64,000 nt of DNA. Source: a virus. Its lineage: Duplodnaviria > Heunggongvirae > Uroviricota > Caudoviricetes. The notes beneath the pieces are model-generated. The model was not told the DNA's origin. It did not search any database and was given only the letters and a program-made list of their open reading frames with translations. Below are positions 12,108 to 55,737 of this stretch, one piece after another (within the stretch, counting starts at the first letter, position 1; the number at the start of each line of letters is the position of its first letter). The position numbers were made by a program, and so were the translations under genes. The DNA is taken from positions 1 through 64,000 of IMG/VR virus record IMGVR_UViG_3300037088_000797. One strand, written 5' to 3'.

Positions 12108-12272
12108 TTATACGGTTACGTCTCTTTTTACCCAATAGTAAAAAGGAATGAGAGCAAGTAGTACACTAATTTCAGCTTTCTTAAAAATCGGAATGCCTAA
12201 TAAATGTAGAACCACAGTTACATAATAAATAAAAATTATTACGATAAAAGATTCAATAAAAAAAGTAATCAT
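12108..12272 (-). CDS. small membrane protein (54 aa)
   Basis: hydrophobic ORF filling gap; low confidence. Confidence 0.25.
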   Translation of the reverse strand: MITFFIESFIVIIFIYYVTVVLHLLGIPIFKKAEISVLLALIPFYYWVKRDVTV

Positions 12273-12302
12273 TTTTTTGGGTTTTAAATTATATAAATTG
12301 AA

Positions 12303-13088: not shown

Positions 13089-13124
13089 AATTTAAAGTTA
13101 ACGTTTATCTATAGTTCAGTTCGA

Positions 13125-13154
13125 TTATACGAAAGAAAATTAAAAATGTTACAA
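13125..13154 (-). promoter_or_regulatory. recurrent promoter-like motif (variant TTGTAACA)
   Basis: ttatacg 13125-13131, tgttacaa 13147-13154. Confidence 0.45.
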
Positions 13155-13160
13155 AAAACA

Positions 13161-13685
13161 TCAATTATTTTCAAAATATTTTGTTTCAAGGTTATTATTA
13201 AGGTATCCAGTGATGTCAATATCAATGTCACAATCATATCCACCTTCAAGATCATAAGACACGTCATATGTTATTTCAACTATTAAGTAATTAACTTTTG
13301 GAAACACACCTTTAGATAATTCATCTTCAGATTGTGGGACAAAGTTAGATAATATTTTGACAAAATCAAGTTTTTTGAATAAATCTTCTATACCTGCATT
13401 ACTTATTTCTTCTTCTAATTGATTATCAAGGGTGTGCAGGTTAAACATGAGATAAGTTGTATTATCATGTTCTCTGAAATTACCTGCAAATTGAAGAAAA
13501 CAATCAGCATTCATTGGCTGATTATGCTGTCCTTTATTAGTATTGACAGTATAGAAAGGAAGATATGCAAACACGTCTCTACGATGTTGCTGTGCTTCTC
13601 TCAGTTTATTAATGTATTCGTCAGACACATTATATAACTCTACTGCCAAAAGGCATTTTTCTTTACTATGACCTGTTCCTAACAT
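13161..13685 (-). CDS. hypothetical protein
   Basis: 174 aa ORF. Confidence 0.45.
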   Translation of the reverse strand: MLGTGHSKEKCLLAVELYNVSDEYINKLREAQQHRRDVFAYLPFYTVNTNKGQHNQPMNADCFLQFAGNFREHDNTTYLMFNLHTLDNQLEEEISNAGIEDLFKKLDFVKILSNFVPQSEDELSKGVFPKVNYLIVEITYDVSYDLEGGYDCDIDIDITGYLNNNLETKYFENN

Positions 13686-14474: not shown

Positions 14475-15206
14475 TTAATTGTTAATATTTTTTTTCCAGT
14501 TAAAATATGACTTTACACCACCGCAATGTAATTTGCTCATACCTTTCATTTTTAAATTATGTTCATCACAAAAATTTGTAAGATTAGTTATATTTTTATA
14601 TAAAATACCATCTGGACTAATAAATGAATATGAATGAGAATAATCTTTCACCCATCCCTTATAGTAATAAATTTTATTATTCAATAATAAACTAATTGAT
14701 ACATTATCTAATTTGTTTTCTCTACAAAATTGTCTAATATTGGTAAAAGTAACATGTTTATTTTCTGGTGTTATTAATTCATATGTTTTATTTGCTTTTT
14801 CTCCCCATGTCTTAGACATTTGTTCTCTAACTGCAAGCGGTATTGTTTTACCTAAATGACTTTTGGACATTTGATTTATTGTTTTGGTAGTAAATTGACG
14901 ACCACTACAATTACCTGCAATCCAACACATATTATAATTTAAATTTGTGGGATAATTAGCTTTTCTATTATCTAAGTATTTTTGTTCTTCAATTAATATT
15001 TGATTATCATCAACATTTTTTAAAATACGAAATTCAAATTCATTTTTTCCATATTTATTATATGCTCTTTGAAGATATAAACTATGATGAATATTAGCTT
15101 TTAAATCCGTTTTATGTCTTATCCAACGAGATTTACCATTACCAACAGCACTCCCAATATATGTTGCATTATTAATTTTATTAACTATTGAATAAATAAC
15201 TCCCAT
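14475..15206 (-). CDS. GIY-YIG homing endonuclease
   Basis: N-terminus GVIYSIVNKINNATYIGSA = GIY...YIG motif. Confidence 0.7.
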   Translation of the reverse strand: MGVIYSIVNKINNATYIGSAVGNGKSRWIRHKTDLKANIHHSLYLQRAYNKYGKNEFEFRILKNVDDNQILIEEQKYLDNRKANYPTNLNYNMCWIAGNCSGRQFTTKTINQMSKSHLGKTIPLAVREQMSKTWGEKANKTYELITPENKHVTFTNIRQFCRENKLDNVSISLLLNNKIYYYKGWVKDYSHSYSFISPDGILYKNITNLTNFCDEHNLKMKGMSKLHCGGVKSYFNWKKNINN

Positions 15207-17144: not shown

Positions 17145-17981
17145 TTAATTTAATTTTACAATATTTTTTGCAATTAATTCATTTAATTGATATTGTGGAA
17201 CAATTCCAAAATCTAACACTTTAAATTTAAGTTCATTTTCTTTACAATATTCAATAACGGATGCAAATTTCAATAAATTTAGTGGCGTATTATGTAATTT
17301 TTTTGGTTTGACTTCTATCAAGTATTTGTTATCAACAATAAAATCTGGTGAATAAGTTCTTTCATTACCAGTATAACTTAAATATTTAATTCTTATTTTT
17401 TCTGCCGATATAATTTTTAATTTAAAACGTTCACAGATCAATATAAATTTTAATTCGTGTAGGCTTCTGAAAAAGAAACTATTATACCATCCGCTAATAC
17501 CATTACCCGATTTTTGGGGTGGTTCTTTTCCATACATGGGATTATTTTTACCTTTACTTTTTGATGACCATTTTTTTCTACGATTACTATCTCGTTTATT
17601 TGCCTCTTCAATTCCATATTTTTCAACCCAAATATCAAACACTGTTTTTCCGTACATTGAATTATTTTCACCTGATGAAATTATTCTCATTTTATCTCTG
17701 AATTCAGGTGTTTTGTATGAATCAGAATTATTTAAATGTGATTGAGATATCAAATTTTTACTTTCTATGCTATGTACATGATTTTGAAATCCATTCTTTC
17801 TTTCACCAGATTTTACTTCCGCATTTATAATGTCAATAGTACTACCATAGTTTTTATATCTTATTTTACTGGAACATGACCTGCATGGTCTTTTATTATG
17901 ATCACATTGATTTCTACTATATTTTGTTTTATGTGTTATTATTTCATTACATTCAGGACATTTTCTTGTGTATTCTTCCAT
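17145..17981 (-). CDS. zinc-finger protein, possible endonuclease
   Basis: CPECNE...CRSC zinc ribbon at N-terminus; C-terminal ERTYSPDFIVDNKYLIEVKPKK resembles PD-(D/E)xK-type motif. Confidence 0.35.
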   Translation of the reverse strand: MEEYTRKCPECNEIITHKTKYSRNQCDHNKRPCRSCSSKIRYKNYGSTIDIINAEVKSGERKNGFQNHVHSIESKNLISQSHLNNSDSYKTPEFRDKMRIISSGENNSMYGKTVFDIWVEKYGIEEANKRDSNRRKKWSSKSKGKNNPMYGKEPPQKSGNGISGWYNSFFFRSLHELKFILICERFKLKIISAEKIRIKYLSYTGNERTYSPDFIVDNKYLIEVKPKKLHNTPLNLLKFASVIEYCKENELKFKVLDFGIVPQYQLNELIAKNIVKLN

Positions 17982-20378: not shown

Positions 20379-21089
20379 ATGAATAAAATTTGTGGAATAT
20401 ATAAAATAACATCACCAACTAATAAAATTTATATCGGACAGTCTAATAATATTAATAAAAGACTTGAAACATATAGAAATATTCGATGCATTACTCAAAT
20501 TCGATTGTATCGTTCGATTATTAAACATGGTTGGGATAAACATACTTTTGAAATAATTCATGAATGTGACGAGTCTGAATTAAATGATTTAGAAAAACAT
20601 TATATAAAACATTACAATTGTTTCGATACTCCTAATGGTTTAAATCTAACAAGTGGTGGAGATTCACCAATTGTTTCTGAAGAAACAAAATTAAAAATTG
20701 GTTTAGCAAGTAGAGGAAGAATACCATATAATAAAAATAAATCATTGTCTGAAAAAACTAAAGAAAAATTAAGTTTATCACATATGGGATTGATACCACA
20801 TAATAAAGGTAAGAAAACTTCTGTTGAAATAAAGCAAACACAAAGTAAAGCTCATGTTGGAAATAAAAGTAAAACGGGAAGTTATGAAATATATAATCAG
20901 GACAATAAATTAGTTTATAAGTTTACTGGTAAATTCATGGATAAAGTAAAAGAATATGGATTGCCTACTTATTCGTTCTTAAGATCATATCAAAAAAATA
21001 TAAAAATAAATAGAATTAATTTTAAAGATTGGTATGCAATAAAATTATTAAAAGTCGATCTTACTTGTGAGAACAGTTGCGGTCATTGA
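20379..21089 (+). CDS. GIY-YIG homing endonuclease with NUMOD-like repeats
   Basis: GIYKITSPTNKIYIGQS GIY-YIG motif; repeated TKLKIGLASRG / TKEKLSLSHMG motifs; opposite strand to flanking genes, 3' end overlaps 3' end of helicase gene by 42 nt. Confidence 0.8.
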   Translation: MNKICGIYKITSPTNKIYIGQSNNINKRLETYRNIRCITQIRLYRSIIKHGWDKHTFEIIHECDESELNDLEKHYIKHYNCFDTPNGLNLTSGGDSPIVSEETKLKIGLASRGRIPYNKNKSLSEKTKEKLSLSHMGLIPHNKGKKTSVEIKQTQSKAHVGNKSKTGSYEIYNQDNKLVYKFTGKFMDKVKEYGLPTYSFLRSYQKNIKINRINFKDWYAIKLLKVDLTCENSCGH

Positions 21090-29119: not shown

Positions 29120-29950
29120 TTAAGGCATATCTGGAATTAAATTATAAAGAAATTCCATGTCTTGTGTAAAAATTGGACATTCAACACTTTTCCAAACCGT
29201 TCTAAAATAATTTGTTGGTTCTTTAACATACGATTTAAAAACATCTGTCTTCATTTCAACAGTTTCTTTTATGATAAGTCTTCCTCTTTTTTGTTTTGCG
29301 GGATAGTCGTTCCAATTAATACCCCTTTGAAATATCATTTCTTGTTTTTGATCACTATTTTTGCCATCTACTTCTTTTTGACTGTAAAGATTACGTGCAA
29401 CACTTGAAATAGAATTTCTTGTAGCATCTTTTTGTCTCCAAACTATCATATTTCCAACTTCTGTTTTAGATGGTATTGTGAATACACGAGCATCAAAAGT
29501 TGCAAGTTTCATATTAAGAATGTCTTTCTCATATGGTTTAATTGAAATAAAACCATCTGAATCAATGCTGGTGGAATTTTTTATAATTCTTAATAATCTC
29601 AATCTGTTGAATTCGGCAGTAGCCAAACCAGCAGCAACACTAACGATCTTCTGGATATTACCATCAAACCATGCATCAGTACCAATTGCATCAAAATCAG
29701 TCATAAGAATAGAAATTTCATCAGACTGCACAAATGCAAATTTAGTACCTTGTATGTTCTTACAAAGATAAGAAGCAGTTGCATCCATATCATCAATAAG
29801 ACCCTGATCAAAAGGTTGTATTAAACCTCTGGTATAAGTGTGAAATGCCTTACCATCAACACGGATTATTGTATATGTCCTACGTGGAAGCAGAAACCTT
29901 GTTCTATCCTCATAATAGGATTTCATGCGATCTCCAAGTTCATCTTTCAT
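29120..29950 (-). CDS. Thg1-like protein (tRNA-His guanylyltransferase family, 3'-5' nucleotidyltransferase)
   Basis: MKSYYEDRTRFLLPRRTYTIIRVDGKAFHTYTR and FAFVQSDEISILM match Thg1 N-terminal catalytic blocks (RxDGxxFH, QSDE). Confidence 0.8.
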   Translation of the reverse strand: MKDELGDRMKSYYEDRTRFLLPRRTYTIIRVDGKAFHTYTRGLIQPFDQGLIDDMDATASYLCKNIQGTKFAFVQSDEISILMTDFDAIGTDAWFDGNIQKIVSVAAGLATAEFNRLRLLRIIKNSTSIDSDGFISIKPYEKDILNMKLATFDARVFTIPSKTEVGNMIVWRQKDATRNSISSVARNLYSQKEVDGKNSDQKQEMIFQRGINWNDYPAKQKRGRLIIKETVEMKTDVFKSYVKEPTNYFRTVWKSVECPIFTQDMEFLYNLIPDMP

Positions 29951-29951
29951 A

Positions 29952-30320
29952 TTATTCTCCTTTAAATTTATTTGTTGTTATTAATTTTAAAATTCTATCT
30001 TTTTCATCCCATGATTCAATTTCAAGTGTATCAAACATTTCAAATATCGGATAATTTAAAATTTCTTGTTGTTTGTACCTGTCTTTGATAGTTTTACCAT
30101 CGACATAAACAACATTAGCTTGAAATATTCTTTTACGAAGCGAATCATCTGCAACTGGTGTAGTAATGCGTTCGGACACTTCAACCAAACTAAAGTCGAA
30201 TTTTTCTGGTGAGTTAAGTAAATATGTTACGGCTGACCGTGCCATATCTTGACTCTCAGCTTTAATTACTACTTTTATAATCGTTTTACCGTCATTAAAT
30301 TCAAATTTGTACTCTTTCAT
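29952..30320 (-). CDS. hypothetical protein
   Basis: 122 aa ORF. Confidence 0.45.
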   Translation of the reverse strand: MKEYKFEFNDGKTIIKVVIKAESQDMARSAVTYLLNSPEKFDFSLVEVSERITTPVADDSLRKRIFQANVVYVDGKTIKDRYKQQEILNYPIFEMFDTLEIESWDEKDRILKLITTNKFKGE

Positions 30321-30321
30321 T

Positions 30322-30612
30322 TTACAAAAATTTAGTGTAATCCTCTAATCCTAACTCTGCTCCATCACCAAAAATGTAGCCAACCACAAAAAATATTACT
30401 TTACCGTCTTTACCACGAGTTAATGACATCAAACAGTCAGGTGAATCAGAGTAATCTCTTGGCGCATAAAACACACCCATATGATTTGGTATGTTTTCAT
30501 ATGCCTTTATCCAAGGAATTGCTAACAGTTCTTCTTTCGTGTTAACTTCGTGCTCAGTCATTTGATCTTCATAACCTGAGAAGAAATTTGGAAATCTTCT
30601 TTTTACTTTCAT
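30322..30612 (-). CDS. hypothetical protein
   Basis: 96 aa ORF. Confidence 0.45.
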   Translation of the reverse strand: MKVKRRFPNFFSGYEDQMTEHEVNTKEELLAIPWIKAYENIPNHMGVFYAPRDYSDSPDCLMSLTRGKDGKVIFFVVGYIFGDGAELGLEDYTKFL

Positions 30613-30751
30613 TTCTTTTTCTGTTTACCAATTATTCTATCACCTTTTAAATAACGTTTATATGCTTCAGGCACTTTTTTTGGTGACTGATAACTCTTTG
30701 CAAAGTTAGCAAACTCAATCATATCTTTACGTGAATATCGTCCCATATTTA

Positions 30752-30949
30752 TTATATTTTACATGGACACCAATCAGGTATTGCTACCTTATCAAAAGTT
30801 TCAACATATCCAGCAATCTTTTTACCATGTGCTTTGTTGCAAAACCAATTAAATGCCATTTCAAAACTATCTGCAGTATACATTCGTTCCTCTCTGAAAA
30901 AAGGACACTCACTACAATTTTTAATGCTGATTTTAATTTCCGTTGCCAT
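30752..30949 (-). CDS. small Cys-rich protein
   Basis: 65 aa; CSECPF...WFCNKAH...WCPC. Confidence 0.4.
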   Translation of the reverse strand: MATEIKISIKNCSECPFFREERMYTADSFEMAFNWFCNKAHGKKIAGYVETFDKVAIPDWCPCKI

Positions 30950-31096
30950 TTTCTTCCAGTTTTATATCCAAATATTTCTTTTCCATGTCTCTCATAAGAC
31001 TGGCATCTTGAAATTCACCGATATTAACTAAGGTGTACTTTAATTCTATCACCAATTTCAAGATTTTATCTTTATCTTCTGCTGTTATTATTCTCA

Positions 31097-31960
31097 TTAT
31101 TTCAACGTACTGTTAAGTTTCTGTTTGAATAATTGAACTGTTTTATTACCAATAGCTTTACTTGCTTCACGTGATTCAATTATCTCACCTTTACCTTCCC
31201 TGTATACATCTTCAATCATTGCTTTAATGATTGTAGGTACACCTTCCATGCTGATATCAACAGGTAGTTTCTGAAGTACGTGTTCCAGACGAAGATTGGT
31301 AACCCATTCTTCAGCAATTGCTTTAGCTTCTTCAAGAACTTTAACCTGCTCTGGAGTTACCTCACGTTTAGATTTAGTTTCCATTTGTTCATCTGGTTTA
31401 TACTTACATATAACTCTCTCACCATTATTAGTTTTCATTTCAATCAATGGGCGGAGAACAATACCTTCACGTTTTTGTGGCTCTACAATACCATTACGAA
31501 CAGCTTGAACTGAATTACTGTCTCTTTCTGCAGTAAGCGTTTCCAAGTCTGTGGTAATCTTATTGTAAGATACAAACTCCAGACTAAATTGTTTGCAAAC
31601 ATCTTCTGCATTTGGTACATTAAGCCAAACATCACCAACGTAAACGTCAAAGCCAATAAATTTAAGAACTTTGCCATATCTAAATGATTGACCCTGTTGT
31701 TTACCACCATATGCTTCGCCATAAATGGTTACATCAACATCTGGAAAAATTTCAGCAAATTTGGCTTTAAGAAAGTCTTTGTTGAATAATGCAGCAAATG
31801 CTACATTACTTTCGCCACCACTACTGTAACGAACGTCTTTGCTTTCAAATTTCCAACCAATATGTGTTGATGTGCCATGAATTTTTTCCATAGCATAACA
31901 TTCTTTAAATAAAAGAATTGTCTGTGACTTATATAGGTTCTCTATATGTAGGTATCCCAT
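31097..31960 (-). CDS. RNA ligase, Rnl2 family
   Basis: Motif I EKIHGTS (T4 Rnl2 EKIHGTN, lysine nucleophile), YGEAYGGKQQG (cf. FGEFAGPGIQKN), EGIVLRP (cf. EGYVLKP), ICKYK (motif V). Confidence 0.8.
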   Translation of the reverse strand: MGYLHIENLYKSQTILLFKECYAMEKIHGTSTHIGWKFESKDVRYSSGGESNVAFAALFNKDFLKAKFAEIFPDVDVTIYGEAYGGKQQGQSFRYGKVLKFIGFDVYVGDVWLNVPNAEDVCKQFSLEFVSYNKITTDLETLTAERDSNSVQAVRNGIVEPQKREGIVLRPLIEMKTNNGERVICKYKPDEQMETKSKREVTPEQVKVLEEAKAIAEEWVTNLRLEHVLQKLPVDISMEGVPTIIKAMIEDVYREGKGEIIESREASKAIGNKTVQLFKQKLNSTLK

Positions 31961-36258: not shown

Positions 36259-37053
36259 TTAAGGTTTATAATTTTTTACCATTTCTCTTTGCAAATATTG
36301 ATAAAACCATTTGCTTAACATGTTCGGAAGTTTTGCATAGTCAGCAAAACCATATAATCCACAACTGAAAAAGTCATGTACTTCAACAACGAATGTATGA
36401 TAATCGTTCACTCCAACGTCCAGAGTATATGCTACTGGTGCAGTACCTGATTTTTCATAAGCACTTACCATATTGCTGATTGATTGAATCTGGGGAAATT
36501 TAATAAATTCACCACTATAATGCTTTAATCCAACTATTTTACCTTCAAAAACAAAGGTGCGCCATTCACTATCAATGGTGATGTATTCAGAAATTTGATA
36601 ATGTCCTGCAGGTATATTCCACACGTGATTTTCATCCAGTCTAAGAACTTCAGCAAAACCTTTAATTTTCTCATTACTTTTCACAAACCATTTGCCTCTA
36701 CGATCTTCCAAGTCCATATGATTACCGTTTATTATTGGTCTTTGAGAATATCGCACGTCAAATAAGCATTCAGGTACATTTATTGGCTTTGGTGTTAAAC
36801 CGTAAAAGTGACTCAAAAATTCTGTTACAAATTCAACACTACCAACTGGCACATAGTTTTTGTGACATGGCTTAAATTGTATGGGATAAATATCATTAGG
36901 TTCAGTTACTTCAATATAATCAAGAAACTTTACTTTGATTTTATCTTTATCATCGTTACATGCCAGCCAGTTCTTAAATCTTACTGACTCAAGCAAGGCG
37001 AAAGTGAAATCATGCCTGATTTCTCCGTTGATTTTTTGAATAAGAAATTTCAT
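36259..37053 (-). CDS. hypothetical protein
   Basis: 264 aa ORF. Confidence 0.45.
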   Translation of the reverse strand: MKFLIQKINGEIRHDFTFALLESVRFKNWLACNDDKDKIKVKFLDYIEVTEPNDIYPIQFKPCHKNYVPVGSVEFVTEFLSHFYGLTPKPINVPECLFDVRYSQRPIINGNHMDLEDRRGKWFVKSNEKIKGFAEVLRLDENHVWNIPAGHYQISEYITIDSEWRTFVFEGKIVGLKHYSGEFIKFPQIQSISNMVSAYEKSGTAPVAYTLDVGVNDYHTFVVEVHDFFSCGLYGFADYAKLPNMLSKWFYQYLQREMVKNYKP

Positions 37054-37249: not shown

Positions 37250-37840
37250 TTAAAAAGTTTTATGTGTAAAAAAAATTTTTATATTCTCTACTATTGTGGG
37301 TGTTAAGCCACAGTACTTGTCACATTGAAAGAAATTGAATTGTTGTTTTAATAACATATCCGAATCATCGTCTATTATTGCATATTGATGAAAATCAAAA
37401 TAATGCACACCAAACCACTTCATACAATTATCTTTAAGCCATTTACTTATTTCAGTACCTCTTTCATATCCTGTATATGGTGTTTTATCGATAATTGTAA
37501 AGGTTGCACCGCAATAATTAAATATCTTTTGCAAGTCTTCTACCGACCAACTACTTCTCAATGAAGCACTAATAACGATTGCTGAATTGGTTTCCTTGCA
37601 AAGCCAATTCAATAAACCGATACGCATTTCGCAGGTTTCGCTTTTATAATACTCCAGATCGGTGAGTTGCTTTTGTTTGAGTTGCTTACGAAGATACTTT
37701 TTAACTATCTTATATAAAGGTATACCATCATAACGTTCAAGTACTGCAAACTTCTCGGTATAGAAAAGCTGGCAATTCAGAACGCCATCATGATCAAGAA
37801 AAATAACATGATCGAATTTATTTACTTCTGGTTCAACCAT
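37250..37840 (-). CDS. HAD-like hydrolase (putative phosphatase)
   Basis: HVIFLDHDGVLNC resembles HAD motif I (hhhhDxDx[TV]); similar to gene 40241-40726. Confidence 0.4.
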   Translation of the reverse strand: MVEPEVNKFDHVIFLDHDGVLNCQLFYTEKFAVLERYDGIPLYKIVKKYLRKQLKQKQLTDLEYYKSETCEMRIGLLNWLCKETNSAIVISASLRSSWSVEDLQKIFNYCGATFTIIDKTPYTGYERGTEISKWLKDNCMKWFGVHYFDFHQYAIIDDDSDMLLKQQFNFFQCDKYCGLTPTIVENIKIFFTHKTF

Positions 37841-38079: not shown

Positions 38080-38084
38080 GTCCT

Positions 38085-38115
38085 TTATACGTATGAGTTT
38101 TAAAAAAGGTTACAA
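38085..38115 (-). promoter_or_regulatory. recurrent promoter-like motif
   Basis: ttatacg 38085-38091, ggttacaa 38108-38115; 6 nt from ATG of gene 37822-38079. Confidence 0.5.
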
Positions 38116-38162
38116 ATATTCTTGCAAATATAACTATTTTATTTTAATTACAACTTTTTTTT

Positions 38163-38200
38163 AAAAAAATTTGTTGTTTTAATAAATTGTATTACTTTTG
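38163..38200 (+). promoter_or_regulatory. Bacteroidota-type promoter candidate (-33 TTTG / -7 TAnnTTTG)
   Basis: tttg (about 38170) then about 19-nt spacer then tacttttg at 38193-38200, 18 nt upstream of ATG 38219. Confidence 0.4.
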
Positions 38201-38218
38201 TTGTTTAAAACAAACGCA

Positions 38219-38434
38219 ATGGAAGAAATCAGAAATCATATTGAAGAGAATTTGGTTCATGCCCAAAGAGAATACGATGACATGTTCTATCATTGGGATA
38301 AAGCACAGCAAGCATTTAAAAGTATTGAAGCAGAACTTAAATCATTAACGGTGTCTTTAGAAAAAGCACGTATAAATATGGAATATTATCAAAAATTGTT
38401 AAAAGAATTAAACGAACACGAAAAAATCCAATGA
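38219..38434 (+). CDS. hypothetical coiled-coil protein
   Basis: Track ORF 38198-38434 begins at TTG; first ATG at 38219 (MEEIRNH...). Confidence 0.4.
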   Translation: MEEIRNHIEENLVHAQREYDDMFYHWDKAQQAFKSIEAELKSLTVSLEKARINMEYYQKLLKELNEHEKIQ

Positions 38435-39006
38435 GAGGCGATTTTACAAAAATTAGAGAGTATGCTGAAAAGTGTCACGATGACGCTAACTGCAAATACG
38501 CTGGTGGAAGCTATATGATTCACGTTGATAAAGTCGTATATGTTATTGAAACATATCAGGATATATTTCTTCGTCCAATTGATGCAGAAATTACCAAAGC
38601 TGCTGCATATGGTCATGATCTAATTGAAGATGCAAAACAAACAGTTAGTGAGATAAAAGAAATAATGGGTATTGATGCAGCCAGAGTTGTTCTTAGAGTA
38701 ACCGATGTACCTGCAGAAAATCGGCTAATGAAGCATTTGCTTACAATGGGTAAAACTGTTGAAGACTATCGTGCTATCATTCTTAAAATGGCTGATATTT
38801 GGTCAAATGCAACTTTCAGCAAAATTTCTCGTAGCTCAATGTATGATAAATATGTTGAAGAATATAAGTATCGTAAACCAATATTTCAATTGGGATTAAA
38901 ATGGTATATTGAGTTTCTTGATCAGGAAATACTTAAACAATTATGGGCAGAACTTGATTATGCTCATGGTGTAAAAGGAACTTATTTGAATTTAAAATTA
39001 GAATAA
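38431..39006 (+). CDS. SpoT/RelA-type HD domain protein (small alarmone hydrolase candidate)
   Basis: AAAYGHDLIEDAKQT matches RelA/SpoT hydrolase AALLHDVIEDT block; LRVTDV and RAIILKMADIWSNA resemble downstream KLADRLHN region. Confidence 0.65.
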   Translation: MRGDFTKIREYAEKCHDDANCKYAGGSYMIHVDKVVYVIETYQDIFLRPIDAEITKAAAYGHDLIEDAKQTVSEIKEIMGIDAARVVLRVTDVPAENRLMKHLLTMGKTVEDYRAIILKMADIWSNATFSKISRSSMYDKYVEEYKYRKPIFQLGLKWYIEFLDQEILKQLWAELDYAHGVKGTYLNLKLE

Positions 39007-39272
39007 TGAAAAAAGTTTACAAAGAAAACGCAGAGGCATTAACCTTATGTGACGAAGTGCAACGTTTAACCCGTAGAAGGGATAAACTCAGTGCTGAAAT
39101 TCACAACAAAAGAGAAAAAATGAAATTAGTCTGTACGCATGCTGAAACAAAAGTTGAAAACACTTATGTTGAAGGTGGTTATTTGGATAAAAGCCAATAC
39201 ATAAAAACTACAATTTGTGTTGTGTGTGGAAAAGAACTCGATAAAAAAATAACTTACGGTGGATTTAATTAA
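39006..39272 (+). CDS. small zinc-ribbon protein
   Basis: CDE...CTHAE...CVVCGKE. Confidence 0.4.
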   Translation: MKKVYKENAEALTLCDEVQRLTRRRDKLSAEIHNKREKMKLVCTHAETKVENTYVEGGYLDKSQYIKTTICVVCGKELDKKITYGGFN

Positions 39273-39290: not shown

Positions 39291-39842
39291 ATGAGTGTAA
39301 ATAAATTAAGTCATCTTATGATTGACCTTGAAACAATGGGTAAAGGAAGCAATTCTGCAATTGTATCAATTGGTGCGGTTGAATTTGAATTACAGTCAGG
39401 CGAAACTGGCGAAGAATTCTATACAAGAGTGGATTTACAATCTTGTCTTGACCTTGGACTTAAAGTTAATGCCAGTACAATTTTCTGGTGGTTAATGCAA
39501 AGTGAAAAAGCACGAAAAGAAATTTGTAAAGAAGGTAAACCTTTAAGAGAAGCATTGTTTGATTTAAGTGTTTTTATTAAATTACTTAAAACAGATGTCC
39601 AGACTTGGGGAAATGGTGCAAGATTTGATCTTGGCATTCTTGAAGACGCTTACGATGCTTGTGGTAGTCATATTACTCCTTGGGGTTTCAGGTTTGAAAG
39701 AGACGTAAGAACGCTTGTTTCTTTTGCTCCTGCGATTAAAGATCATTATCCCTTTACAGGGGTAGAACATAATCCAATTGATGATTGCAAATACCAAATC
39801 GGTTATTGTAGCGCAATTTGGAATAAATTAAACACAAAATAA
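39291..39842 (+). CDS. DEDDh 3'-5' exonuclease (DnaQ-like fold)
   Basis: Exo I MIDLETMG, Exo II WGNGARFDLGIL, Exo III HNPIDDCKYQ. Confidence 0.7.
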   Translation: MSVNKLSHLMIDLETMGKGSNSAIVSIGAVEFELQSGETGEEFYTRVDLQSCLDLGLKVNASTIFWWLMQSEKARKEICKEGKPLREALFDLSVFIKLLKTDVQTWGNGARFDLGILEDAYDACGSHITPWGFRFERDVRTLVSFAPAIKDHYPFTGVEHNPIDDCKYQIGYCSAIWNKLNTK

Positions 39843-39845
39843 ACT

Positions 39846-40193
39846 ATGGAAAATTTAACTTCACACACCTTTAAAGAAAAGGTATATGACTTCAACGGTA
39901 CTAATAGAAAACTTCTTGGCACTAAGCCAATTGTAATTGATTTTTATGCTGATTGGTGCAATCCTTGTAAAATGGTTGCCCCTATTCTCGAAGAAATTAG
40001 CACAGAATATCCTAATGTTGAATTTTATAAAATTGACACAGATGCAGAAAGTGAATTAGCTGCAGTGTTTGGAATCAGAAGCATACCTTCTATATTATTC
40101 ATACCAATTGAAGGCATACCCCAAATGATGATGGGAGCACAGCCAAAATCCAGATTTACAAGTATATTGAAAAATGTTTTTGGAATTGAATAA
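39846..40193 (+). CDS. thioredoxin
   Basis: FYADWCNPCKM active-site (WCxPC) in thioredoxin-like arrangement. Confidence 0.75.
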   Translation: MENLTSHTFKEKVYDFNGTNRKLLGTKPIVIDFYADWCNPCKMVAPILEEISTEYPNVEFYKIDTDAESELAAVFGIRSIPSILFIPIEGIPQMMMGAQPKSRFTSILKNVFGIE

Positions 40194-40240: not shown

Positions 40241-40726
40241 ATGAAAAATGAAAAACGATATATTTTTTTAGACCTTGATAGCGTTATGATAACAGAAAGG
40301 GAACATCATTCAGAAAATTTACACCCAAAATACATGGTTGACCCGTTTGACCCTATGTGTGTCGAAGTGTTAAACGAGATTACTGAAATTATGCACCCTC
40401 TTATTATACTCACCAGTGATAGAAGATTACGATTTAAACTCAGTGAAATAAATGAAGTTTTTAAATATAATGGTGTTATTTCACCAGTTAAAGATTATAC
40501 TCCTGATTTTTGGGGTACACAATTTACAAAACTTCAAGATGCTGATATGTGTCGTGGATTCGAAATTCTTAGGTATGTTCACCAATATCAAATTGAAAAT
40601 TATGCCGTAGTTGATGATATGAATCTCATGGGTTGGGTTTCAGATCATTTTGTTTGGTGTACAAATTCAACTGACGGACTTAACCAAACTGGACTTAAAG
40701 AAAAAATATTGAAAATTTTAATGTAA
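40241..40726 (+). CDS. HAD-like hydrolase (putative)
   Basis: YIFLDLDSVMIT N-terminal DxDx[TV]-like motif; promoter-like motif 40198-40228 upstream. Confidence 0.4.
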   Translation: MKNEKRYIFLDLDSVMITEREHHSENLHPKYMVDPFDPMCVEVLNEITEIMHPLIILTSDRRLRFKLSEINEVFKYNGVISPVKDYTPDFWGTQFTKLQDADMCRGFEILRYVHQYQIENYAVVDDMNLMGWVSDHFVWCTNSTDGLNQTGLKEKILKILM

Positions 40727-40730
40727 AACA

Positions 40731-42170
40731 ATGTATAATATTATTTTTATGAAAAACGAAAAATTGGAATTATTACTGAACAAGGTTGTTGAGTACAATA
40801 ACCCTGCAGCTTATGATGGCAAAGGCTGTAACTTTAAAGGTTTCCTTTATAAAAACAGTCAGGGATACTACATTAAGGTAGTTGAACATATTAGCGGTAC
40901 TGATATTGCCGTTAATGACAAAATTTACCTTAAAACTGGTGATGATGCATTCATCATCCACGCTGAAAAACCCAAACTCATGAGGGTTGATAAAAATTCA
41001 TGGCATTATAATTTGGTGAAATATGTGCTCGGTGAAAAAGCACCAACACCACAGAATATGCAAAACGGTTGTCCATATTTCTGGTTACTGATTTTTTCAT
41101 TGTTTGCATGTTCATTTCTTGCAATCTGGCAATTTTTGAAATATGTAGTCTTACTGTTTCCAAAGGCATTTATTTGGTGTCTTGAAAAATCAGTTGACAA
41201 TTGGCTTGCAACTATTGATGACATAACAGCATATGAAATGTCAGAAAATCAATATAGTGGTAAGAAAAATGTACAAAAACTTCCACTTACTGCAAAAGTA
41301 TTTTTTGATGCAACAGATGAAAGTTTTTTCAATTATTTTCTTGTTAAGAAATATGGTGAAAGTGCAAGATTTGATAAAGTAAAAAAAGACGAAATTTACA
41401 ACAATTGGGCAAAGTGGCGTAAAGAAGTAAATGAAGCACGTGCAAAACGTGATTCAGAAAGATATGCAAAAGAAGCAGAAGAAAACAAACGTGAATTGAT
41501 TCGTGCTGAAAAAAGAGCAGCTAAAAAAGCTATCTGGGATGCACGTATGCAACCTTTCTATGATTCAAGTAATAAATTCTTTGCAGCACTTCGTGAAGCG
41601 TTCACATTCAGGGGTGACACTAAATCACTTATCAAGAGAACCAAACAAATCGTAGGTGCTCTCATTACCCTTGTATTGCTTGTAGCAGCATTTTTCTTTG
41701 TAGAATGTTTTGCATGGGCATTAATGATCGCAATAGATGCATGTATTAAGTTCTGGTATGTATTTGTAATTATCATTGGTATATGTGCAGTAGCAGGTCT
41801 TTTATACTTCATAGGTGTATTCATTGGTGGTTGGCTTCAAACTCTTGTCAATAAATATAAGGGTGGTAAAAAAGTATGGTATGTTGAACCATTCATTTAT
41901 CTACTTTGGTATCCTGTAAAATATGTAGGACTTGCCATTGGTTATGCTGTATTTTATGTAATTGGCTATCCTCTTAAATTCGTCTTCTATGACTTTCTCT
42001 GGAAAATAGTTCTTGTAAATGTCGGTACATGGATATGGAATGGTTTGTGCTCAATTGGTCGTGGATTGGCTACAAGTACAGGTGTGTTCGGTGAATACGT
42101 TAGTGCTGACTACACAGGTTTGTGCCCCGGTATCGAATGGACTGGCTTTGACGAAGAAGAAACGAAGTAA
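40731..42170 (+). CDS. large membrane protein
   Basis: 479 aa with multiple TM helices and charged coiled-coil segment. Confidence 0.5.
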   Translation: MYNIIFMKNEKLELLLNKVVEYNNPAAYDGKGCNFKGFLYKNSQGYYIKVVEHISGTDIAVNDKIYLKTGDDAFIIHAEKPKLMRVDKNSWHYNLVKYVLGEKAPTPQNMQNGCPYFWLLIFSLFACSFLAIWQFLKYVVLLFPKAFIWCLEKSVDNWLATIDDITAYEMSENQYSGKKNVQKLPLTAKVFFDATDESFFNYFLVKKYGESARFDKVKKDEIYNNWAKWRKEVNEARAKRDSERYAKEAEENKRELIRAEKRAAKKAIWDARMQPFYDSSNKFFAALREAFTFRGDTKSLIKRTKQIVGALITLVLLVAAFFFVECFAWALMIAIDACIKFWYVFVIIIGICAVAGLLYFIGVFIGGWLQTLVNKYKGGKKVWYVEPFIYLLWYPVKYVGLAIGYAVFYVIGYPLKFVFYDFLWKIVLVNVGTWIWNGLCSIGRGLATSTGVFGEYVSADYTGLCPGIEWTGFDEEETK

Positions 42171-47395: not shown

Positions 47396-47628
47396 TTTCA
47401 CGCATTTCGGTATTTATAGGTATGAATACCGAAATGCATTTTAGAACAAAACTTTACTGGAATAACTTATCTAAGGATGATAGACTGGAATTATTGCAAA
47501 AATACAACTTTTGGGGTGGTTTTAGCGATTATCTGTATGATTATATACCAGAAGACCTTAAAGAAGTAATATCGCTTAAAATCGATTTAAAGGATGAAAT
47601 TGACGAGAAATCTACAATGATCTCTTAA
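47386..47628 (+). CDS. hypothetical protein
   Basis: 80 aa ORF; 3' end overlaps convergent patatin gene. Confidence 0.35.
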   Translation: MGLISRISVFIGMNTEMHFRTKLYWNNLSKDDRLELLQKYNFWGGFSDYLYDYIPEDLKEVISLKIDLKDEIDEKSTMIS

Positions 47629-48553
47629 TTGGTAAAAAAACCTCTACTCTGTTTTTGTCAAAGGCAGTATTATAACCTTCTTCCCACCATGCAAGCATTT
47701 CTTCTTGATTAAATACCATTGAACTTCTGCTTAACCTTCTTGGTAACCAATATATGGTAACTTTTGCACCTTGTTTGTTAAGTCTTTTTATTCTTTCATA
47801 AAAATATTCATGTTCAATATCGTAACGTGTTGCCGAAATATTCGTAATAACATTTTCAATAATATTATTGATTTTATTTCCTTCAGATTTTTCATCTATA
47901 CGTGCTCGATGCAACACTATATCGATCTCTTTGAAACCTTTCATCATTAATTGATCTATGCCAATTAAATCTGATATTCCACCATTACTCCATTGACCAA
48001 CATGAAAACTACCAGTGTTATTATTCCAACCCATATTCACTAAAGAAGTAAAAAATGGAAAATTGGCACTACACCACATCCAGTCTTTAAACTCTTCAAG
48101 TTCAATATCTGCAGAACTAAAATAATGAATTCTTGAAGGTACTTGTGAGTAATTCTGTGCACCCACGAGAATTTCTTTATTTAAAATTCTTAATTCATCA
48201 AAAATTTCTTGGGGAAAAAATTTATCGATTGTATTTCTTAAGACATTAGATGTACGTACAGATTTTTGATTTAATAATAAACTTGTTATTACGGCAAATT
48301 TATTTATTTTACCTTTTTTATTTAAAGGCATTGGCTTGTACCAACATTTGTCAAACACATCCTCATTCTTTATTGAGGTATATCTTGTTTTAAGTATTTC
48401 CCATTCTTTTACTGCCGTAAACGGTCCTAAAAGATTTCCTGTTGATACTCCAACAATAGTATCATAATCCTCATTAATTCTTGCAAGTGTACCACCACCA
48501 AACGCTCCCCAGCTACCACCCCCTGAAATTAATAATGCACGTTTAGAACTCAT
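47612..48553 (-). CDS. patatin-like phospholipase
   Basis: Glycine-rich oxyanion motif ISGGGSWGAFGGG and nucleophile elbow GVSTG (GxSxG). Confidence 0.7.
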   Translation of the reverse strand: MSSKRALLISGGGSWGAFGGGTLARINEDYDTIVGVSTGNLLGPFTAVKEWEILKTRYTSIKNEDVFDKCWYKPMPLNKKGKINKFAVITSLLLNQKSVRTSNVLRNTIDKFFPQEIFDELRILNKEILVGAQNYSQVPSRIHYFSSADIELEEFKDWMWCSANFPFFTSLVNMGWNNNTGSFHVGQWSNGGISDLIGIDQLMMKGFKEIDIVLHRARIDEKSEGNKINNIIENVITNISATRYDIEHEYFYERIKRLNKQGAKVTIYWLPRRLSRSSMVFNQEEMLAWWEEGYNTAFDKNRVEVFLPIKRSL

Positions 48554-52198: not shown

Positions 52199-52567
52199 CT
52201 AATAATATTTTGCTTCTAAAGCATCATATTCATTACTATTTACACCAAGTTCTTTTCTAATCTTTCGAATTCTCAAATTATTAAAAATTACTGCGCTGAA
52301 AAGATACAATACAAGTGCAGCTAATATAATTGAATATGGTATTATAAATATTCCCACAATGTGTATCGATAAATTTAATATTGTTGCAATCATCCCAAGT
52401 AAAAACAATCCACCAAGAATACCAACAACTGTGTTTTTAACGCCAAAGTCTTTTCTTTCTGTTGATTTTGAAAAATACTTATATGCAAATTTAATCCAAT
52501 TACTTGGCATGTGATTATCATATGCTATATCAAACTGTTCTTTGGTTATTGTTTTCCAATCACTCAT
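52199..52567 (-). CDS. membrane protein (holin candidate)
   Basis: 122 aa with two TM helices, immediately upstream of GH25 lysozyme gene. Confidence 0.4.
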   Translation of the reverse strand: MSDWKTITKEQFDIAYDNHMPSNWIKFAYKYFSKSTERKDFGVKNTVVGILGGLFLLGMIATILNLSIHIVGIFIIPYSIILAALVLYLFSAVIFNNLRIRKIRKELGVNSNEYDALEAKYY

Positions 52568-55500
52568 TATAGTTTTATACCTTTAGTGTCAATATAATTT
52601 TTTGTGTTATAGCCAGTTAAATGTTTCATTTTTTCAAACTGTTCATTTATTGGACTCTTTTTGCCTTTCTGTTCATTTTCATTCAATTTCTGAACAGGAT
52701 TCTTCAGTGCAAATACTTTCTTGCCGTCAGTAAAGAATTTATTTTCATTCATTGCTTTAACTGCGCTTTCATTAACACTAACCCTTTGTGTATATGTATT
52801 TCCAAGACCTTCAAGGCTTACTTCATATAATGCTGGTGTTGCTTCTTTTATTTCAACAACTTCATTTAAATTGAAATCGATGATAGCTCTTTTACCAAGA
52901 GCATTGAAGAATTTACCAGTTATCATACCTTCTTTAAGACCTTCTCTTTCGTTCCAACCAGATTTTTCTTTATCAAATTCTGCTCTTACGGCTTTTGTGT
53001 CTTGAATAGGTGCAGCAACTTTATTATACATAGGTGCTTTACCTTTGAAAGCAAGTTGTTTCTGTCTCATTTCATAAATGTCGTCACCCATATCGGCTTT
53101 CATGCGTTTTTCGAATGCTTCATTTGGTTTATTATCATAATCCAAGCTATGCTGACCATTACGATACATATTAACCTCTTCTTGTTCTGCAGTGGTTAAA
53201 TTACGTTTTGGTATTTCGTCACCTTTAAAGTTAGCTGAATCACCAACATTTTTAAGTGCTTCACCGCTTTTTGCATCAGTTGCCTTAATTTCTTCATTTT
53301 CAAGGTCTGCACCTAATTTCTGTGGGTCTTCAGGAACATCAGTTTGCTGATCTTTCCACTCTAATTCTTTTTCAACATTAATAATTTCTTTTGTATCGCT
53401 GTTACTGAAGTCTTTCTTAAAATTAGCTTTGTTTTCATCACCAAGACGATCTTTCAAGATCAATGATGATGGTTTTTTATCTTCACTCATTTTCATTAAT
53501 TTTTTATGGTGAACTGCATATGCATTCAGTTCGTTATCTAATTCTTCTAATAATTTAATGTCTGATTCATTCATTGGACTACCACCACCAGTACTCTGCA
53601 TACCTGTTGGTACATTTCCATTAGGACTAATTGGAGTAGTAGGTGTCATTTTGTTTGACATTGATGTTGGACTATCCGCAATTATTGTGCTGTCAGTTTC
53701 ATCAACCTTTTCAGGTAATCCTTTATGTTTCGTAGATGCAAAATCTTCAACATCTTTAGGTTTCATCGTTTTTGCAATATCTTTTGAAGCACCCTTAAGT
53801 TTGCTCATTGGTATTTCTCCTTTTTGAGCAGCATGTGCTATACCCATCGCTTGCTGTTGTGCAATTGATGTTGATTTTTCTTGTATTTGTTTACTTTCTT
53901 CCATAGTTTGTAAATTTGCTTTATCTGGGTCGCCAGTTTGTAATGTATTCATTTCTACTTCTGCATCTGCATCGTCCCAATTTTTTATTGTATCACTTGT
54001 AAATGCACTGGTTTTATTAACCATATCATCATTGGCAGCTTTTCTACCTGTCATATCAATTTTATCCCATGTGCCAACTGGAGTTTTTGGTAGTTTTGAT
54101 GCGATACCATCAGCTTGCATTTCAGGTATTTTATTATCCTGATGTGGGATAAGTGTATGTGGTTCTGTCATATCCTGATGAAAAATTTCAACATCAGCAT
54201 CTGGACTGTGTTGAAGGTCTTGACCAAGAAATAACATTGTGTTATCTTCAATTTCTTTTATTTTATTTGTACGTTCTGAACTTTGTGGCATTTCACTAAC
54301 ACCTAATCCTTTATTACTTTCTGAATGTGTTTGTTTATAATTTTGTCCAAGTTGACGATTAAAATTTTCAGCATCTTCATTCAACATATCAACATATTTT
54401 TCAAAACCATCTGGTTCAATAAGATAATTACTTTCTTGAATAATTGTACCACCCTTTATTTGTGGTTTTGTTTTTACTGGTGCTTTGCCTTTAGCATTCA
54501 TAAGGTCACCTGAACCCCATGCTGAAGGTGTATAGTAAGGACCTGAACCGCTTTCGCCATTGCCTGATGCACCTGCACCACCAACAGTACCGCTACCGCC
54601 ACCAGTGCCAGTCATTTCATTTAACATATTACCATTATCATCAATTAAATTCATATTACCATGATCTGAAACGAACCAAGTATTAGGAAACCAATTATTT
54701 GCTTGTTTCCATGCTTTTACTGCAGCGAGTGCATCGTCCATTTCTTGAAATTCTTTTACAAATTTACCATTACAACTTACAGAATATTTAAAACCGTTTG
54801 ATTCAATATAACAATCGTCATCTTGAGGTTCGTCTGCAGCTTCTGCATCAACATTTGCTTCAGGCTTGCCTTTCATCATTGTAAATTCGGCAATAGGTTT
54901 TCTTTGAACTGCACCAAGTGCTGGAGCAAATGCGCCTGAACTTGCTGAACCAGTTTCTTCATTAACACCGTTAATCACTTCAAGATTATAACCAAGACTC
55001 TCAAGTTCTGCTTTTAATGGAGCATATTCTTCTGGAGTAGCAGGTCTGCTTTCTTTAGCATATGCTGGATGGGCAGATGAATGCTGTCCTACATGAGAAT
55101 AAGCTGTCCTGAAATCTCCATGATGTACTTCATCTGGAAAATAAGCAAATAAATCAGGATTTTCAGGGTCTTTTTCATTAACTAAAAACTCTACTCTTGT
55201 AATTGGTTCTTCGTTCTCTGCAACCACTGGTTTTAAGCCAGATGGGGCGAGTGTCTGTGGTTTAATATCGGTTTTATGCTGCATGGTTTCTTCTCCCGCT
55301 TTTTTTAATTGATTAATACCGCTTGCGTCCCTACGTTTCTTTTCTTTGGGAATTGCTTGCTTGTATTTCTGTAAATACTTCGGACTATTAAGAACGTAGT
55401 CATTAAATAACATATTTTGAATAGTTTCATTATAATGATAACCATATTTTTCTTCACCGTTCTCAGCCATTTCATCATATTTTGCAGACAATTTAGGGTC

Positions 55501-55737
55501 TGAAAATACAAGTGCTTCCATCTTAGCCAAGCTAAAAATCTTTTTCTTTAATGACTGTTCTGCTTCGCTCAATAAACCATCAGTTTCGTTTAATTTAATA
55601 CCCATTTGATTATTAATTTTCTTGGTATTCCTTTGAAAATTAGCACCAAACTCAGTAGGTTTACTTAATGTCGGTTTAAAATTAGTTTCTTCGTTCATTA
55701 TTTTATATCGCTTTTCCAGAAATCTTTCTTCTGCCAT
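52567..55737 (-). CDS. large acidic low-complexity protein
   Basis: 1056 aa, Gly/Ser-rich tract TGTGGGSGTVGGAGASGNGESGSG, no recognisable catalytic motif. Confidence 0.5.
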   Translation of the reverse strand: MAEERFLEKRYKIMNEETNFKPTLSKPTEFGANFQRNTKKINNQMGIKLNETDGLLSEAEQSLKKKIFSLAKMEALVFSDPKLSAKYDEMAENGEEKYGYHYNETIQNMLFNDYVLNSPKYLQKYKQAIPKEKKRRDASGINQLKKAGEETMQHKTDIKPQTLAPSGLKPVVAENEEPITRVEFLVNEKDPENPDLFAYFPDEVHHGDFRTAYSHVGQHSSAHPAYAKESRPATPEEYAPLKAELESLGYNLEVINGVNEETGSASSGAFAPALGAVQRKPIAEFTMMKGKPEANVDAEAADEPQDDDCYIESNGFKYSVSCNGKFVKEFQEMDDALAAVKAWKQANNWFPNTWFVSDHGNMNLIDDNGNMLNEMTGTGGGSGTVGGAGASGNGESGSGPYYTPSAWGSGDLMNAKGKAPVKTKPQIKGGTIIQESNYLIEPDGFEKYVDMLNEDAENFNRQLGQNYKQTHSESNKGLGVSEMPQSSERTNKIKEIEDNTMLFLGQDLQHSPDADVEIFHQDMTEPHTLIPHQDNKIPEMQADGIASKLPKTPVGTWDKIDMTGRKAANDDMVNKTSAFTSDTIKNWDDADAEVEMNTLQTGDPDKANLQTMEESKQIQEKSTSIAQQQAMGIAHAAQKGEIPMSKLKGASKDIAKTMKPKDVEDFASTKHKGLPEKVDETDSTIIADSPTSMSNKMTPTTPISPNGNVPTGMQSTGGGSPMNESDIKLLEELDNELNAYAVHHKKLMKMSEDKKPSSLILKDRLGDENKANFKKDFSNSDTKEIINVEKELEWKDQQTDVPEDPQKLGADLENEEIKATDAKSGEALKNVGDSANFKGDEIPKRNLTTAEQEEVNMYRNGQHSLDYDNKPNEAFEKRMKADMGDDIYEMRQKQLAFKGKAPMYNKVAAPIQDTKAVRAEFDKEKSGWNEREGLKEGMITGKFFNALGKRAIIDFNLNEVVEIKEATPALYEVSLEGLGNTYTQRVSVNESAVKAMNENKFFTDGKKVFALKNPVQKLNENEQKGKKSPINEQFEKMKHLTGYNTKNYIDTKGIKL

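Follow-up and report, generated by a model that had tools for sequence, protein, structure and literature searches.

Standalone phage enzymes that counter alarmone-producing toxins are already described. In 2020, Jimmy et al. reported that the standalone small alarmone hydrolases (SAHs) of Salmonella phages PVP-SE1 (PbcSpo) and SSU5 (PaSpo) neutralised five of five toxSAS toxins, and proposed that incoming phages bypass alarmone-based abortive infection by means of SAHs (PMC7229694). PaSpo is routinely co-expressed for detoxifying PhRel2 and CapRel. [quoted passage not shown] An 'HD-alarmone PDEase' of group 2/3 jumbo phages was catalogued by Iyer, Anantharaman, Krishnan, Burroughs and Aravind (2021), who proposed that these enzymes degrade alarmones of the stringent response and of related immune systems (PMC7824862).

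Some determinants of substrate choice in these hydrolases are known. In Thermus thermophilus Rel (TtRel), R43 and R44 of the HD1 motif are stacked on the guanine of ppGpp (PMC10083569). The R44Q form of Bacillus subtilis Rel serves as a hydrolase-defective control (PMC9765508). Aph1, which has Asp at the HD1 arginine site, does not cleave ppGpp (PMC10083569).

The DNA analysed here (the window, the whole stretch of 64 kb) encodes a protein of this kind:

38431 to 39006, plus strand: standalone RelA/SpoT-type HD hydrolase (SAH) ORF of 191 aa, ATG to TAA.

A preliminary description, made from the letters alone, had placed a SpoT/RelA-type HD domain protein at these positions, and profile searches agree. 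The ORF matches Pfam HD_4 (PF13328) at E=4.7e-7 (30.1 bits against a gathering cutoff of 27.2), above the 16.4 bits scored by the generic HD Pfam model. NCBIfam TIGR00691 (spoT_relA) matches the N-terminal region, residues 11-126 (E=8.3e-7), and PHROG 990, 'metal-dependent phosphohydrolase', matches at E=8.7e-16. The top PDB sequence matches are Acinetobacter baumannii SpoT, Drosophila Mesh1, and Rel enzymes. A profile built from 38 family sequences improves these matches (Drosophila Mesh1, 1.6e-7; A. baumannii SpoT, 2.1e-7). The resemblance to RelA/SpoT thus is well beyond chance. Characterised SAHs share no more than 12-25% of residues with the protein.

The predicted model folds the whole 191 aa into one helical domain of ten helices: a single hydrolase domain, without synthetase or regulatory domains. 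This fold is nearer to SAH, Mesh1, and Rel than to other HD families. Among viral proteins, Foldseek ranks a phosphohydrolase of the Tenacibaculum jumbo phage PTm1 as the closest in structure (E=2.4e-6).

The ORF is a real, conserved gene. A word-indexed search of 5.8 billion proteins (E<=1e-3) returned 210 homologs, the best 120 of which span 100-52% identity. Nearly all of these 120 are 163-210 aa long (two are 258 and 261 aa), and many of their contigs measure 170-366 kb. When 1.84 billion cluster representatives were searched exhaustively with a profile, 15 clusters passed E<=1e-30, 1013 passed E<=1e-10, and 4187 passed E<=1e-3: a small, tight family inside a large group of small HD proteins. 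Family members are found on 36 IMG/VR viral contigs (49-91% identity), many of them 200-365 kb, and the family is known from metagenomes only. (A 91%-identical protein, P0003, carries the NCBI label 'Candidatus Paceibacterota'.) By relaxed tblastn, 134 phage records contain a weak homolog (24-35% identity); most of these phages are 110-735 kb in size, and the homologs' annotations include 'metal-dependent phosphohydrolase', 'SpoT-like (p)ppGpp synthase/hydrolase', and 'GTP pyrophosphokinase'.

Residue conservation was counted in an alignment of 38 family members and in a wider alignment (n=42) that reaches relatives at 25-37% identity. Six blocks stand out:

38488 to 38499, plus strand: N20-C21-K22-Y23, the family version of the RSH HD1 motif; N20, C21, and Y23 in 38/38.
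38512 to 38523, plus strand: Y28-M-I-H31, conserved Tyr and first metal-ligand His (HD2 motif); invariant in the family and the wider alignment.
38614 to 38631, plus strand: H62-D63-L-I-E66-D67, HD metal ligands and ED catalytic dyad (HD3); 38/38.
38701 to 38724, plus strand: T91-D92-V-P-A-E-N97-R98, the 'VTD...NR' block (HD4 region); conserved.
38785 to 38808, plus strand: K119-M-A-D122-I-W-S-N126, last metal-ligand Asp and ribose-contacting Asn (HD5/6); K119, D122, and N126 invariant.
38839 to 38886, plus strand: M137-Y-D-K140-Y141-V-E-E144-Y145-K-Y147-R148-K-P-I-F152, family-specific C-terminal block; conserved.

These blocks were compared with Mesh1, SpoT, Rel, and the two phage enzymes. 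PaSpo is SSU5_099 (YP_006906731.1, 213 aa); of the 103.3-kb SSU5 genome, the first 100 kb were searched, and it is the only family-profile match there. PVP-SE1 gp220 (YP_004894027.1, 169 aa) is the only such match in the whole PVP-SE1 genome; picked by elimination, it is, we infer, the SAH tested by Jimmy et al.

The preliminary description had seen the hallmark HD..ED motif of (p)ppGpp hydrolases in AAAYGHDLIEDAKQT (residues 57-71, nt 38599-38643), and the HDLIED within this block does align with the HDxxED of Mesh1, SpoT, Rel, PaSpo, and gp220. It also had stated that downstream blocks align; K119-M-A-D122-x-x-x-N126 indeed fits the RSH K.AD..N motif, aligning with K(L)AD..(H/D)N of Mesh1, SpoT, PaSpo, and gp220. 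(The counterpart of N126 is N150 in TtRel and N114 in Aph1; PMC10083569.) Upstream, Y28-M-I-H31 aligns with P-Y-x-x-H of Mesh1, PaSpo, and gp220, and the T91-R98 block aligns with VTDD of Mesh1 and LTN...GNR of PaSpo. The distance from the first His to HD is 31 residues, versus 22-24 in PaSpo and gp220.

The metal tetrad H31, H62, D63, and D122 is complete in 38/38 family members and in 42/42 of the wider set. Also invariant in all 38 members are Y28, E66-D67, T91-D92, R98, K119, and N126. Most of these persist at 25-37% identity, and R98 is invariant as far as relatives at 25%. Nothing in these sequences suggests a pseudo-enzyme. The C-terminal block lies on a long helix (residues 137-162 of the predicted model) and takes the family form M137-Y-x-K140-Y141-V-x-E144-Y145-x-Y147-R148-(K/R)-P-I-F, of which Y141 and E144 persist in the wider group too. 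K140-Y141 possibly is the counterpart of K133-Y134, the pyrophosphate contact of Aph1.

The HD1 motif is where the family departs from its relatives. The guanine-stacking arginine (R44 of Rel; R43/R44 of TtRel; R24 of Mesh1) is absent in all 38 members, which have invariant N20-C21 instead, preceded at position 19 by A, S, or T. The register comes from alignments to Mesh1 and SSU5 PaSpo, together with anchoring on Y..H; so anchored, the position reads GQK-R-KY in PaSpo, NQK-D-KG in PVP-SE1 gp220, and DAN-C-KY in the HD family. The arginine is mostly missing also from the wider group of small phage-type HD proteins (about 1000 clusters). Since it is absent as well from the validated PVP-SE1 SAH and from Aph1, this arginine marks guanine specificity, not SAH membership. 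Its loss in Rel abolishes ppGpp hydrolysis, so ppGpp activity of the HD protein is not to be assumed. The PVP-SE1 SAH neutralises toxSAS that produce (pp)pApp as well as those that modify tRNA, and arginine loss therefore is compatible with counter-toxSAS activity. Given the mutagenesis of Aph1, the loss may represent a shift from guanosine to adenosine substrates. With invariant N20-C21 in place of the guanine-stacking arginine, adenosine-type substrates, be it (p)ppApp or pyrophosphorylated ends of tRNA, may be somewhat likelier than ppGpp.

The surroundings of the gene were compared across 42 related loci:

29120 to 29950, minus strand: Thg1-like tRNA-His guanylyltransferase / 3'-5' polymerase (PHROG 4717, E=1e-77; Pfam Thg1, E=7.4e-25).
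31097 to 31960, minus strand: ATP-dependent RNA ligase (Pfam PF09414, E=1.6e-12; PHROG 548).
36259 to 37053, minus strand: R2K-clade ATP-grasp ligase (Pfam R2K_2, E=9e-21; R2K_3, E=2.7e-16); 39/42 loci.
37250 to 37840, minus strand: HAD_SAK_2 phosphatase-like protein, divergent upstream copy (Pfam PF18143, E=1.6e-16); 32/42 loci.
38198 to 38434, plus strand: coiled-coil-like ORF of 78 aa, with sub-threshold coiled-coil matches only; 10/42 loci.
39006 to 39272, plus strand: ORF of 88 aa containing four Cys; 1 nt of its start is shared with the HD stop; 6/42 loci.
39291 to 39842, plus strand: Rv2179c-like 3'-5' exoribonuclease, DEDDh (Pfam PF16473, E=4.8e-54; PHROG 255, exonuclease); 29/42 loci.
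39846 to 40193, plus strand: thioredoxin (PHROG 22; Pfam PF00085 on an identical contig); 27/42 loci.
40241 to 40726, plus strand: HAD_SAK_2 phosphatase-like protein, downstream copy (Pfam PF18143, E=5e-19); 38/42 loci.

A divergent junction lies at about 38080-38198. The rightward operon begins there with the 78-aa ORF, which at its stop shares 4 nt (ATGA) with the start of the HD gene. The HD gene comes second in this closely spaced operon and is probably transcribed from the junction (about 38.1 kb). The 88-aa Cys-rich ORF that follows is present in the closest relatives only and had no match in family searches.

Several of the neighbours are associated with RNA. HAD_SAK_2 is the HAD domain of 'Swiss Army Knife' RNA repair proteins. 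The RNA ligase and Thg1-like genes lie about 7 kb and 9 kb upstream of the HD gene. The order HD, exoribonuclease, HAD_SAK_2 is kept at 37% identity (protein P0131). On an unrelated contig, a 32%-identical homolog is preceded by RtcB, two genes away, and by HAD_SAK_1 at about 5.5 kb; about 6 kb separate PVP-SE1 gp220 from RNA ligase 2 and a Tk.4 phosphatase; and three tRNA genes precede the homolog in a Rhizobium phage. Homologs in PTm1, pVp-1, SSU5, and the P0140 contig have unrelated neighbours. This synteny hints that the relevant substrate could be an RNA 3' end. Because it is found mostly in one phage lineage, and because large phages cluster auxiliary genes, the association with RNA repair is a hint rather than evidence; it may be inherited rather than functional.

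No RelA_SpoT synthetase domain was found within 10 kb on either side of the gene (in the window and in loci L001, L003, L005, and L006) or among the other scanned ORFs of the window. With no alarmone synthetase nearby, the HD gene is, like the SAH genes of SSU5 and PVP-SE1, an orphan rather than a type IV antitoxin of the ATfaRel type. No PADLOC model matches the protein at E<=0.01.

The window is 30-34% G+C and contains no tRNA genes. It also encodes a Dda-like helicase, an ATP-dependent DNA ligase, an SbcC-like nuclease, several homing endonucleases, a NUDIX hydrolase, and lysis-type enzymes (GH25, SLT, and amidase). The helicase has 2192 matches in phage records, the best (about 30% identity) in crAss-like phages and a 484-kb metagenomic phage; at the DNA level, the window matches none of 50,697 deposited phage genomes. 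The carrier of the HD gene appears to be an uncultured, low-G+C jumbo phage. Since the ORFs scanned in the 64-kb window revealed no capsid or terminase genes, this phage origin is strongly suggested, not proven.

These observations make it fairly probable that the HD protein is a Mn2+-dependent, SAH-type 3'-pyrophosphohydrolase that counters host defence by acting on toxSAS products. For its metal, chemistry, substrates, timing, and biological role we infer the following scheme. Residues H31, H62, D63, and D122 would hold the metal (Mn2+ by homology); E66-D67 would activate a water molecule that splits the 3'-pyrophosphate off a ribonucleotide, with N126 and Y28 positioning ribose and base. 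Host toxSAS would fire on infection, and the HD protein would remove their products: (p)ppApp, or pyrophosphate on the 3'-terminal adenosine of tRNA-CCA, or both. The preliminary description's candidate SAH thus was right in kind, yet the class already had been published, with phage SAHs validated in 2020.

Two narrower readings differ over (p)ppGpp. One holds that the protein chiefly hydrolyses (p)ppGpp, so that the stringent response is held off during infection while rRNA, translation, and the supply of nucleotides are sustained. Membership in the domain family of SpoT, Rel, and Mesh1 favours it, as do the (p)ppGpp hydrolase activities of PaSAH, XccSAH, MESH1, and ATfaRel (PMC10083569, PMC9765508) and the proposal of such a role for phage SAHs, for example in Adele (PMC12846349) and by Iyer et al. 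Nevertheless, it is rather unlikely: nothing corresponds to TtRel R43/R44, positions 19-21 being A/S/T-N-C throughout the family, whereas Rel with Gln at R44 is hydrolase-defective and Aph1 with Asp there spares ppGpp. (A promiscuous enzyme could do both, so this role is compatible with action against toxSAS products.) The opposite reading, in which the family is specific for adenosine 3'-pyrophosphates and does not hydrolyse ppGpp, is a similarly tentative proposal. Here the substrate would be tRNA 3'-CCA pyrophosphorylated by toxSAS; Asn-Cys and the C-terminal KY..EY.YR helix would form a binding site for the RNA end; and de-pyrophosphorylation would be the first step of a tRNA-repair module completed by the adjacent Rv2179c-like exoribonuclease, the HAD_SAK_2 phosphatases, the RNA ligase, and Thg1.

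There are three further explanations. The protein might be an RNA-end healing enzyme that strips a 3'-phosphate, 2',3'-cyclic phosphate, or 3'-pyrophosphate, so that the neighbouring ligase, exoribonuclease, and Thg1 could restore cleaved or modified tRNA. The conserved exoribonuclease and two HAD_SAK_2 genes, the triad retained at 37% identity, the nearby ligase and Thg1, the RtcB and HAD_SAK_1 genes beside the 32% homolog, and the repair genes near gp220 all speak for this, as does the remark of Kurata et al. that the action of SAHs is like that of an RNA 3'-phosphatase, comparable to T4 Pnk. Such a role overlaps with the counter-toxSAS reading if the lesion is a 3'-pyrophosphate; as a separate explanation it is improbable. 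Still less probable is a non-alarmone substrate: NADPH (as for metazoan MESH1), PAPS, another 3'-phosphorylated nucleotide, or a host immune-signal nucleotide, which would make the protein an auxiliary metabolic or anti-signalling enzyme. Bacterial SAHs are weak on NADPH, PADLOC and the gene context reveal no defence signal, and positive evidence for any such substrate is lacking. Finally, the RSH resemblance might be superficial and the protein a generic HD phosphohydrolase (a dNTPase or nucleotidase such as YpgQ, YfbR, or DatZ) that remodels nucleotide pools. The customary phage annotation, 'metal-dependent phosphohydrolase', and a region of nucleotide and DNA metabolism (NUDIX, DNA ligase, and helicase genes) would fit; this explanation has hardly any likelihood.

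The phage SAH concept itself is not new: toxSAS neutralisation dates from 2020 and the jumbo-phage catalogue from 2021. The present ORF is a divergent, metagenome-only member, distinguished by an Arg-to-Cys change in HD1 and a remodelled C-terminus. Particular to the family are the invariant Asn-Cys at HD1 and the conserved block with an exoribonuclease and two HAD_SAK_2 genes, near RNA ligase and Thg1. Both features may point to adenosine-type substrates instead of ppGpp. Apart from the HD1 change, both the gene and its setting are as expected. If the counter-toxSAS reading is true, a large, uncultured jumbo-phage lineage joins the phages whose hydrolases erase toxSAS products, which would support alarmone- and tRNA-pyrophosphorylation-based immunity as a widespread selective pressure on phages. 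Moreover, the family and the wider arginine-less group provide natural variants that may help in dissecting guanosine, adenosine, and RNA-end specificity in RSH hydrolases.

Comparison with known systems places the family nearer PaSpo than PbcSpo. Like the HD family, PaSpo is a standalone phage RSH hydrolase with Y..H, HDxxED, NR, and K.AD..N motifs and no adjacent synthetase; hhalign pairs the two with a probability of 94.8% (E=4.9e-8, 25% identity over 102 core columns). PaSpo nevertheless keeps the canonical GQxR(K) arginine, R22, where the family has C21; its His-to-HD spacing is 24 rather than 31; the C-terminal halves do not align; and its HD_4 score is 68 bits versus 30 for the ORF. The match to gp220 is weak (probability 41.6%, E=2.7e-4), and at 169 aa gp220 is shorter than the 191-aa HD protein. 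However, gp220 likewise is without the HD1 arginine, having Asp-Lys at the Rel R44-K45 position, the same pair as the (p)ppApp-specific Aph1, and it comes from a large phage with RNA ligase genes. Its HD_4 score of 20.8 bits falls under the Pfam cutoff, so the HD ORF is at least as RSH-like as one validated phage SAH.

The SAHs of solved structure are cellular, not viral: Pseudomonas aeruginosa SAH (6z3n/6yvc), human and fly MESH1 (5vxa, 3nqw), Corynebacterium glutamicum RelH (7qoc), and L. levettii SAH (7qoe). They are 14-21% identical to the HD protein. Mesh1 has R-R-K where the family has N-C-x, and the C-terminal KY..EY.YRKPIF block belongs to the HD family only. Structural similarity to Aph1 (B. 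caccae, 7smg) is lower than to these SAHs; Aph1 has eight helices and is a tetramer (PMC10083569), whereas the HD protein model has ten helices. In sequence register, three residues of the Aph1 signature (D24, R96, D116, R119, K133, and Y134; PMC10083569) are not reproduced: D24 corresponds to C21, and D116 and R119 to the variable positions 128 (N126+2) and 131 (N126+5). Among jumbo-phage relatives, the PTm1 protein is about 24% identical to the HD protein and itself falls short of Pfam HD_4. The catalogue of Iyer et al. covers cultured jumbo phages, whereas the HD family comes from metagenomes. At 25% identity to PaSpo, the family probably constitutes an SAH subfamily of its own.

In the window, paralogous HAD_SAK_2 genes (named for "Swiss Army Knife RNA repair" proteins) lie on either side of the gene for the small HD protein. 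Family matches placed further RNA-end-processing functions nearby, namely a Thg1-like polymerase and an RNA ligase. Together with an exoribonuclease and the two HAD_SAK_2 genes, these resemble a phage toolkit for tRNA/RNA repair. The features of the window, by position and strand, are as follows.

Features of the window discussed here
14475-15206 (-), 17145-17981 (-) and 20379-21089 (+): homing-endonuclease genes (GIY-YIG/NUMOD3, HNH-type)
29120-31960 (-): Thg1-like 3'-5' polymerase and ATP-dependent RNA ligase
36259-37053 (-): R2K-clade ATP-grasp ligase (R2K_2/R2K_3)
37250-37840 (-): HAD_SAK_2 phosphatase-like protein, one of two paralogs
39291-39842 (+): Rv2179c-like 3'-5' exoribonuclease
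40241-40726 (+): HAD_SAK_2 phosphatase-like protein, second paralog
40731-42170 (+): 479-residue membrane protein, multi-pass, containing a long, charged coiled stretch; its sole match, a partial one, is to PHROG 944, "membrane protein"
47612-48553 (-): patatin-like phospholipase, conserved in some relatives
52567-55737 (-): 1056-residue protein whose sole match is a DUF3008 segment
60599-63925 (-): 1108-residue SbcC/metallophosphoesterase-like protein

The most constant linked gene of the region encodes the R2K ligase, present in 39 of the 42 related loci. Such ligases occur sporadically in jumbo phages, where they are predicted to modify host proteins (Iyer et al. 2021, PMC7824862). The membrane protein gene is kept 3' of the HD block in 25 of these loci, and a thioredoxin gene (window 39846-40193, +), which lies two to three genes 3' of the HD gene, is found in 27. 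The residue that replaces the HD1 arginine, C21 (window 38491-38493), is an invariant cysteine adjoining the predicted active site. With the nearby thioredoxin, this makes redox control of the putative hydrolase conceivable.

Terminator-like hairpins are over-represented between 37700 and 40800 (six observed versus 1.1 expected from shuffled sequences), and several fall within coding sequence, around 39358-39930. Sigma-70-like promoters in the same interval do not exceed the chance level. In relatives, a LAGLIDADG gene sits between the thioredoxin and HAD_SAK_2 genes (12192-13178 in locus L003); the window lacks it. This difference shows mobile-intron or intein-type turnover in the HD block.

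The HD protein belongs to a large group of small proteins, about 170-200 residues long, which comprises 1013 clusters at E<=1e-10. Aligned members share five motifs: H..N..Y.G.PY..H; HDxxED; GKNR.ER; K.CDR.AN; and M..KY..EY. At the HD1 position most carry asparagine instead of arginine. All members inspected are on phage-like contigs; to our knowledge, none has been biochemically characterised. One homolog with 30% identity (P0140) is encoded on short phage-like contigs (L054:2184-3231; L055:1703-2750), where its gene overlaps an ADP-ribosylglycohydrolase gene upstream and a full-length translation initiation factor IF3 gene downstream. A virus-encoded IF3 is unusual.

Two homologs carry cellular labels: P0003 (91% identity), "Candidatus Paceibacterota bacterium"; and P0068, "Nitrosopumilales archaeon". 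The NCBI contig encoding P0003 is 362,763 bp long, as is the IMG/VR viral contig IMGVR_UViG_3300029288_000055. Both public labels look wrong, the contigs probably being those of jumbo phages mis-binned into metagenome-assembled genomes.

Among known systems, the small alarmone hydrolase gp220 of Salmonella phage PVP-SE1 (L049:36782-37291), presumably the protein of that phage already validated by experiment, scores 20.8 bits against Pfam HD_4, under the cutoff. At the position of Rel R44-K45 it carries Asp-Lys, the identical pair that gives Aph1 its (p)ppApp specificity (PMC10083569). Instead of hydrolysing ppGpp, gp220 may be specific for adenosine, in the manner of the Aph enzymes.
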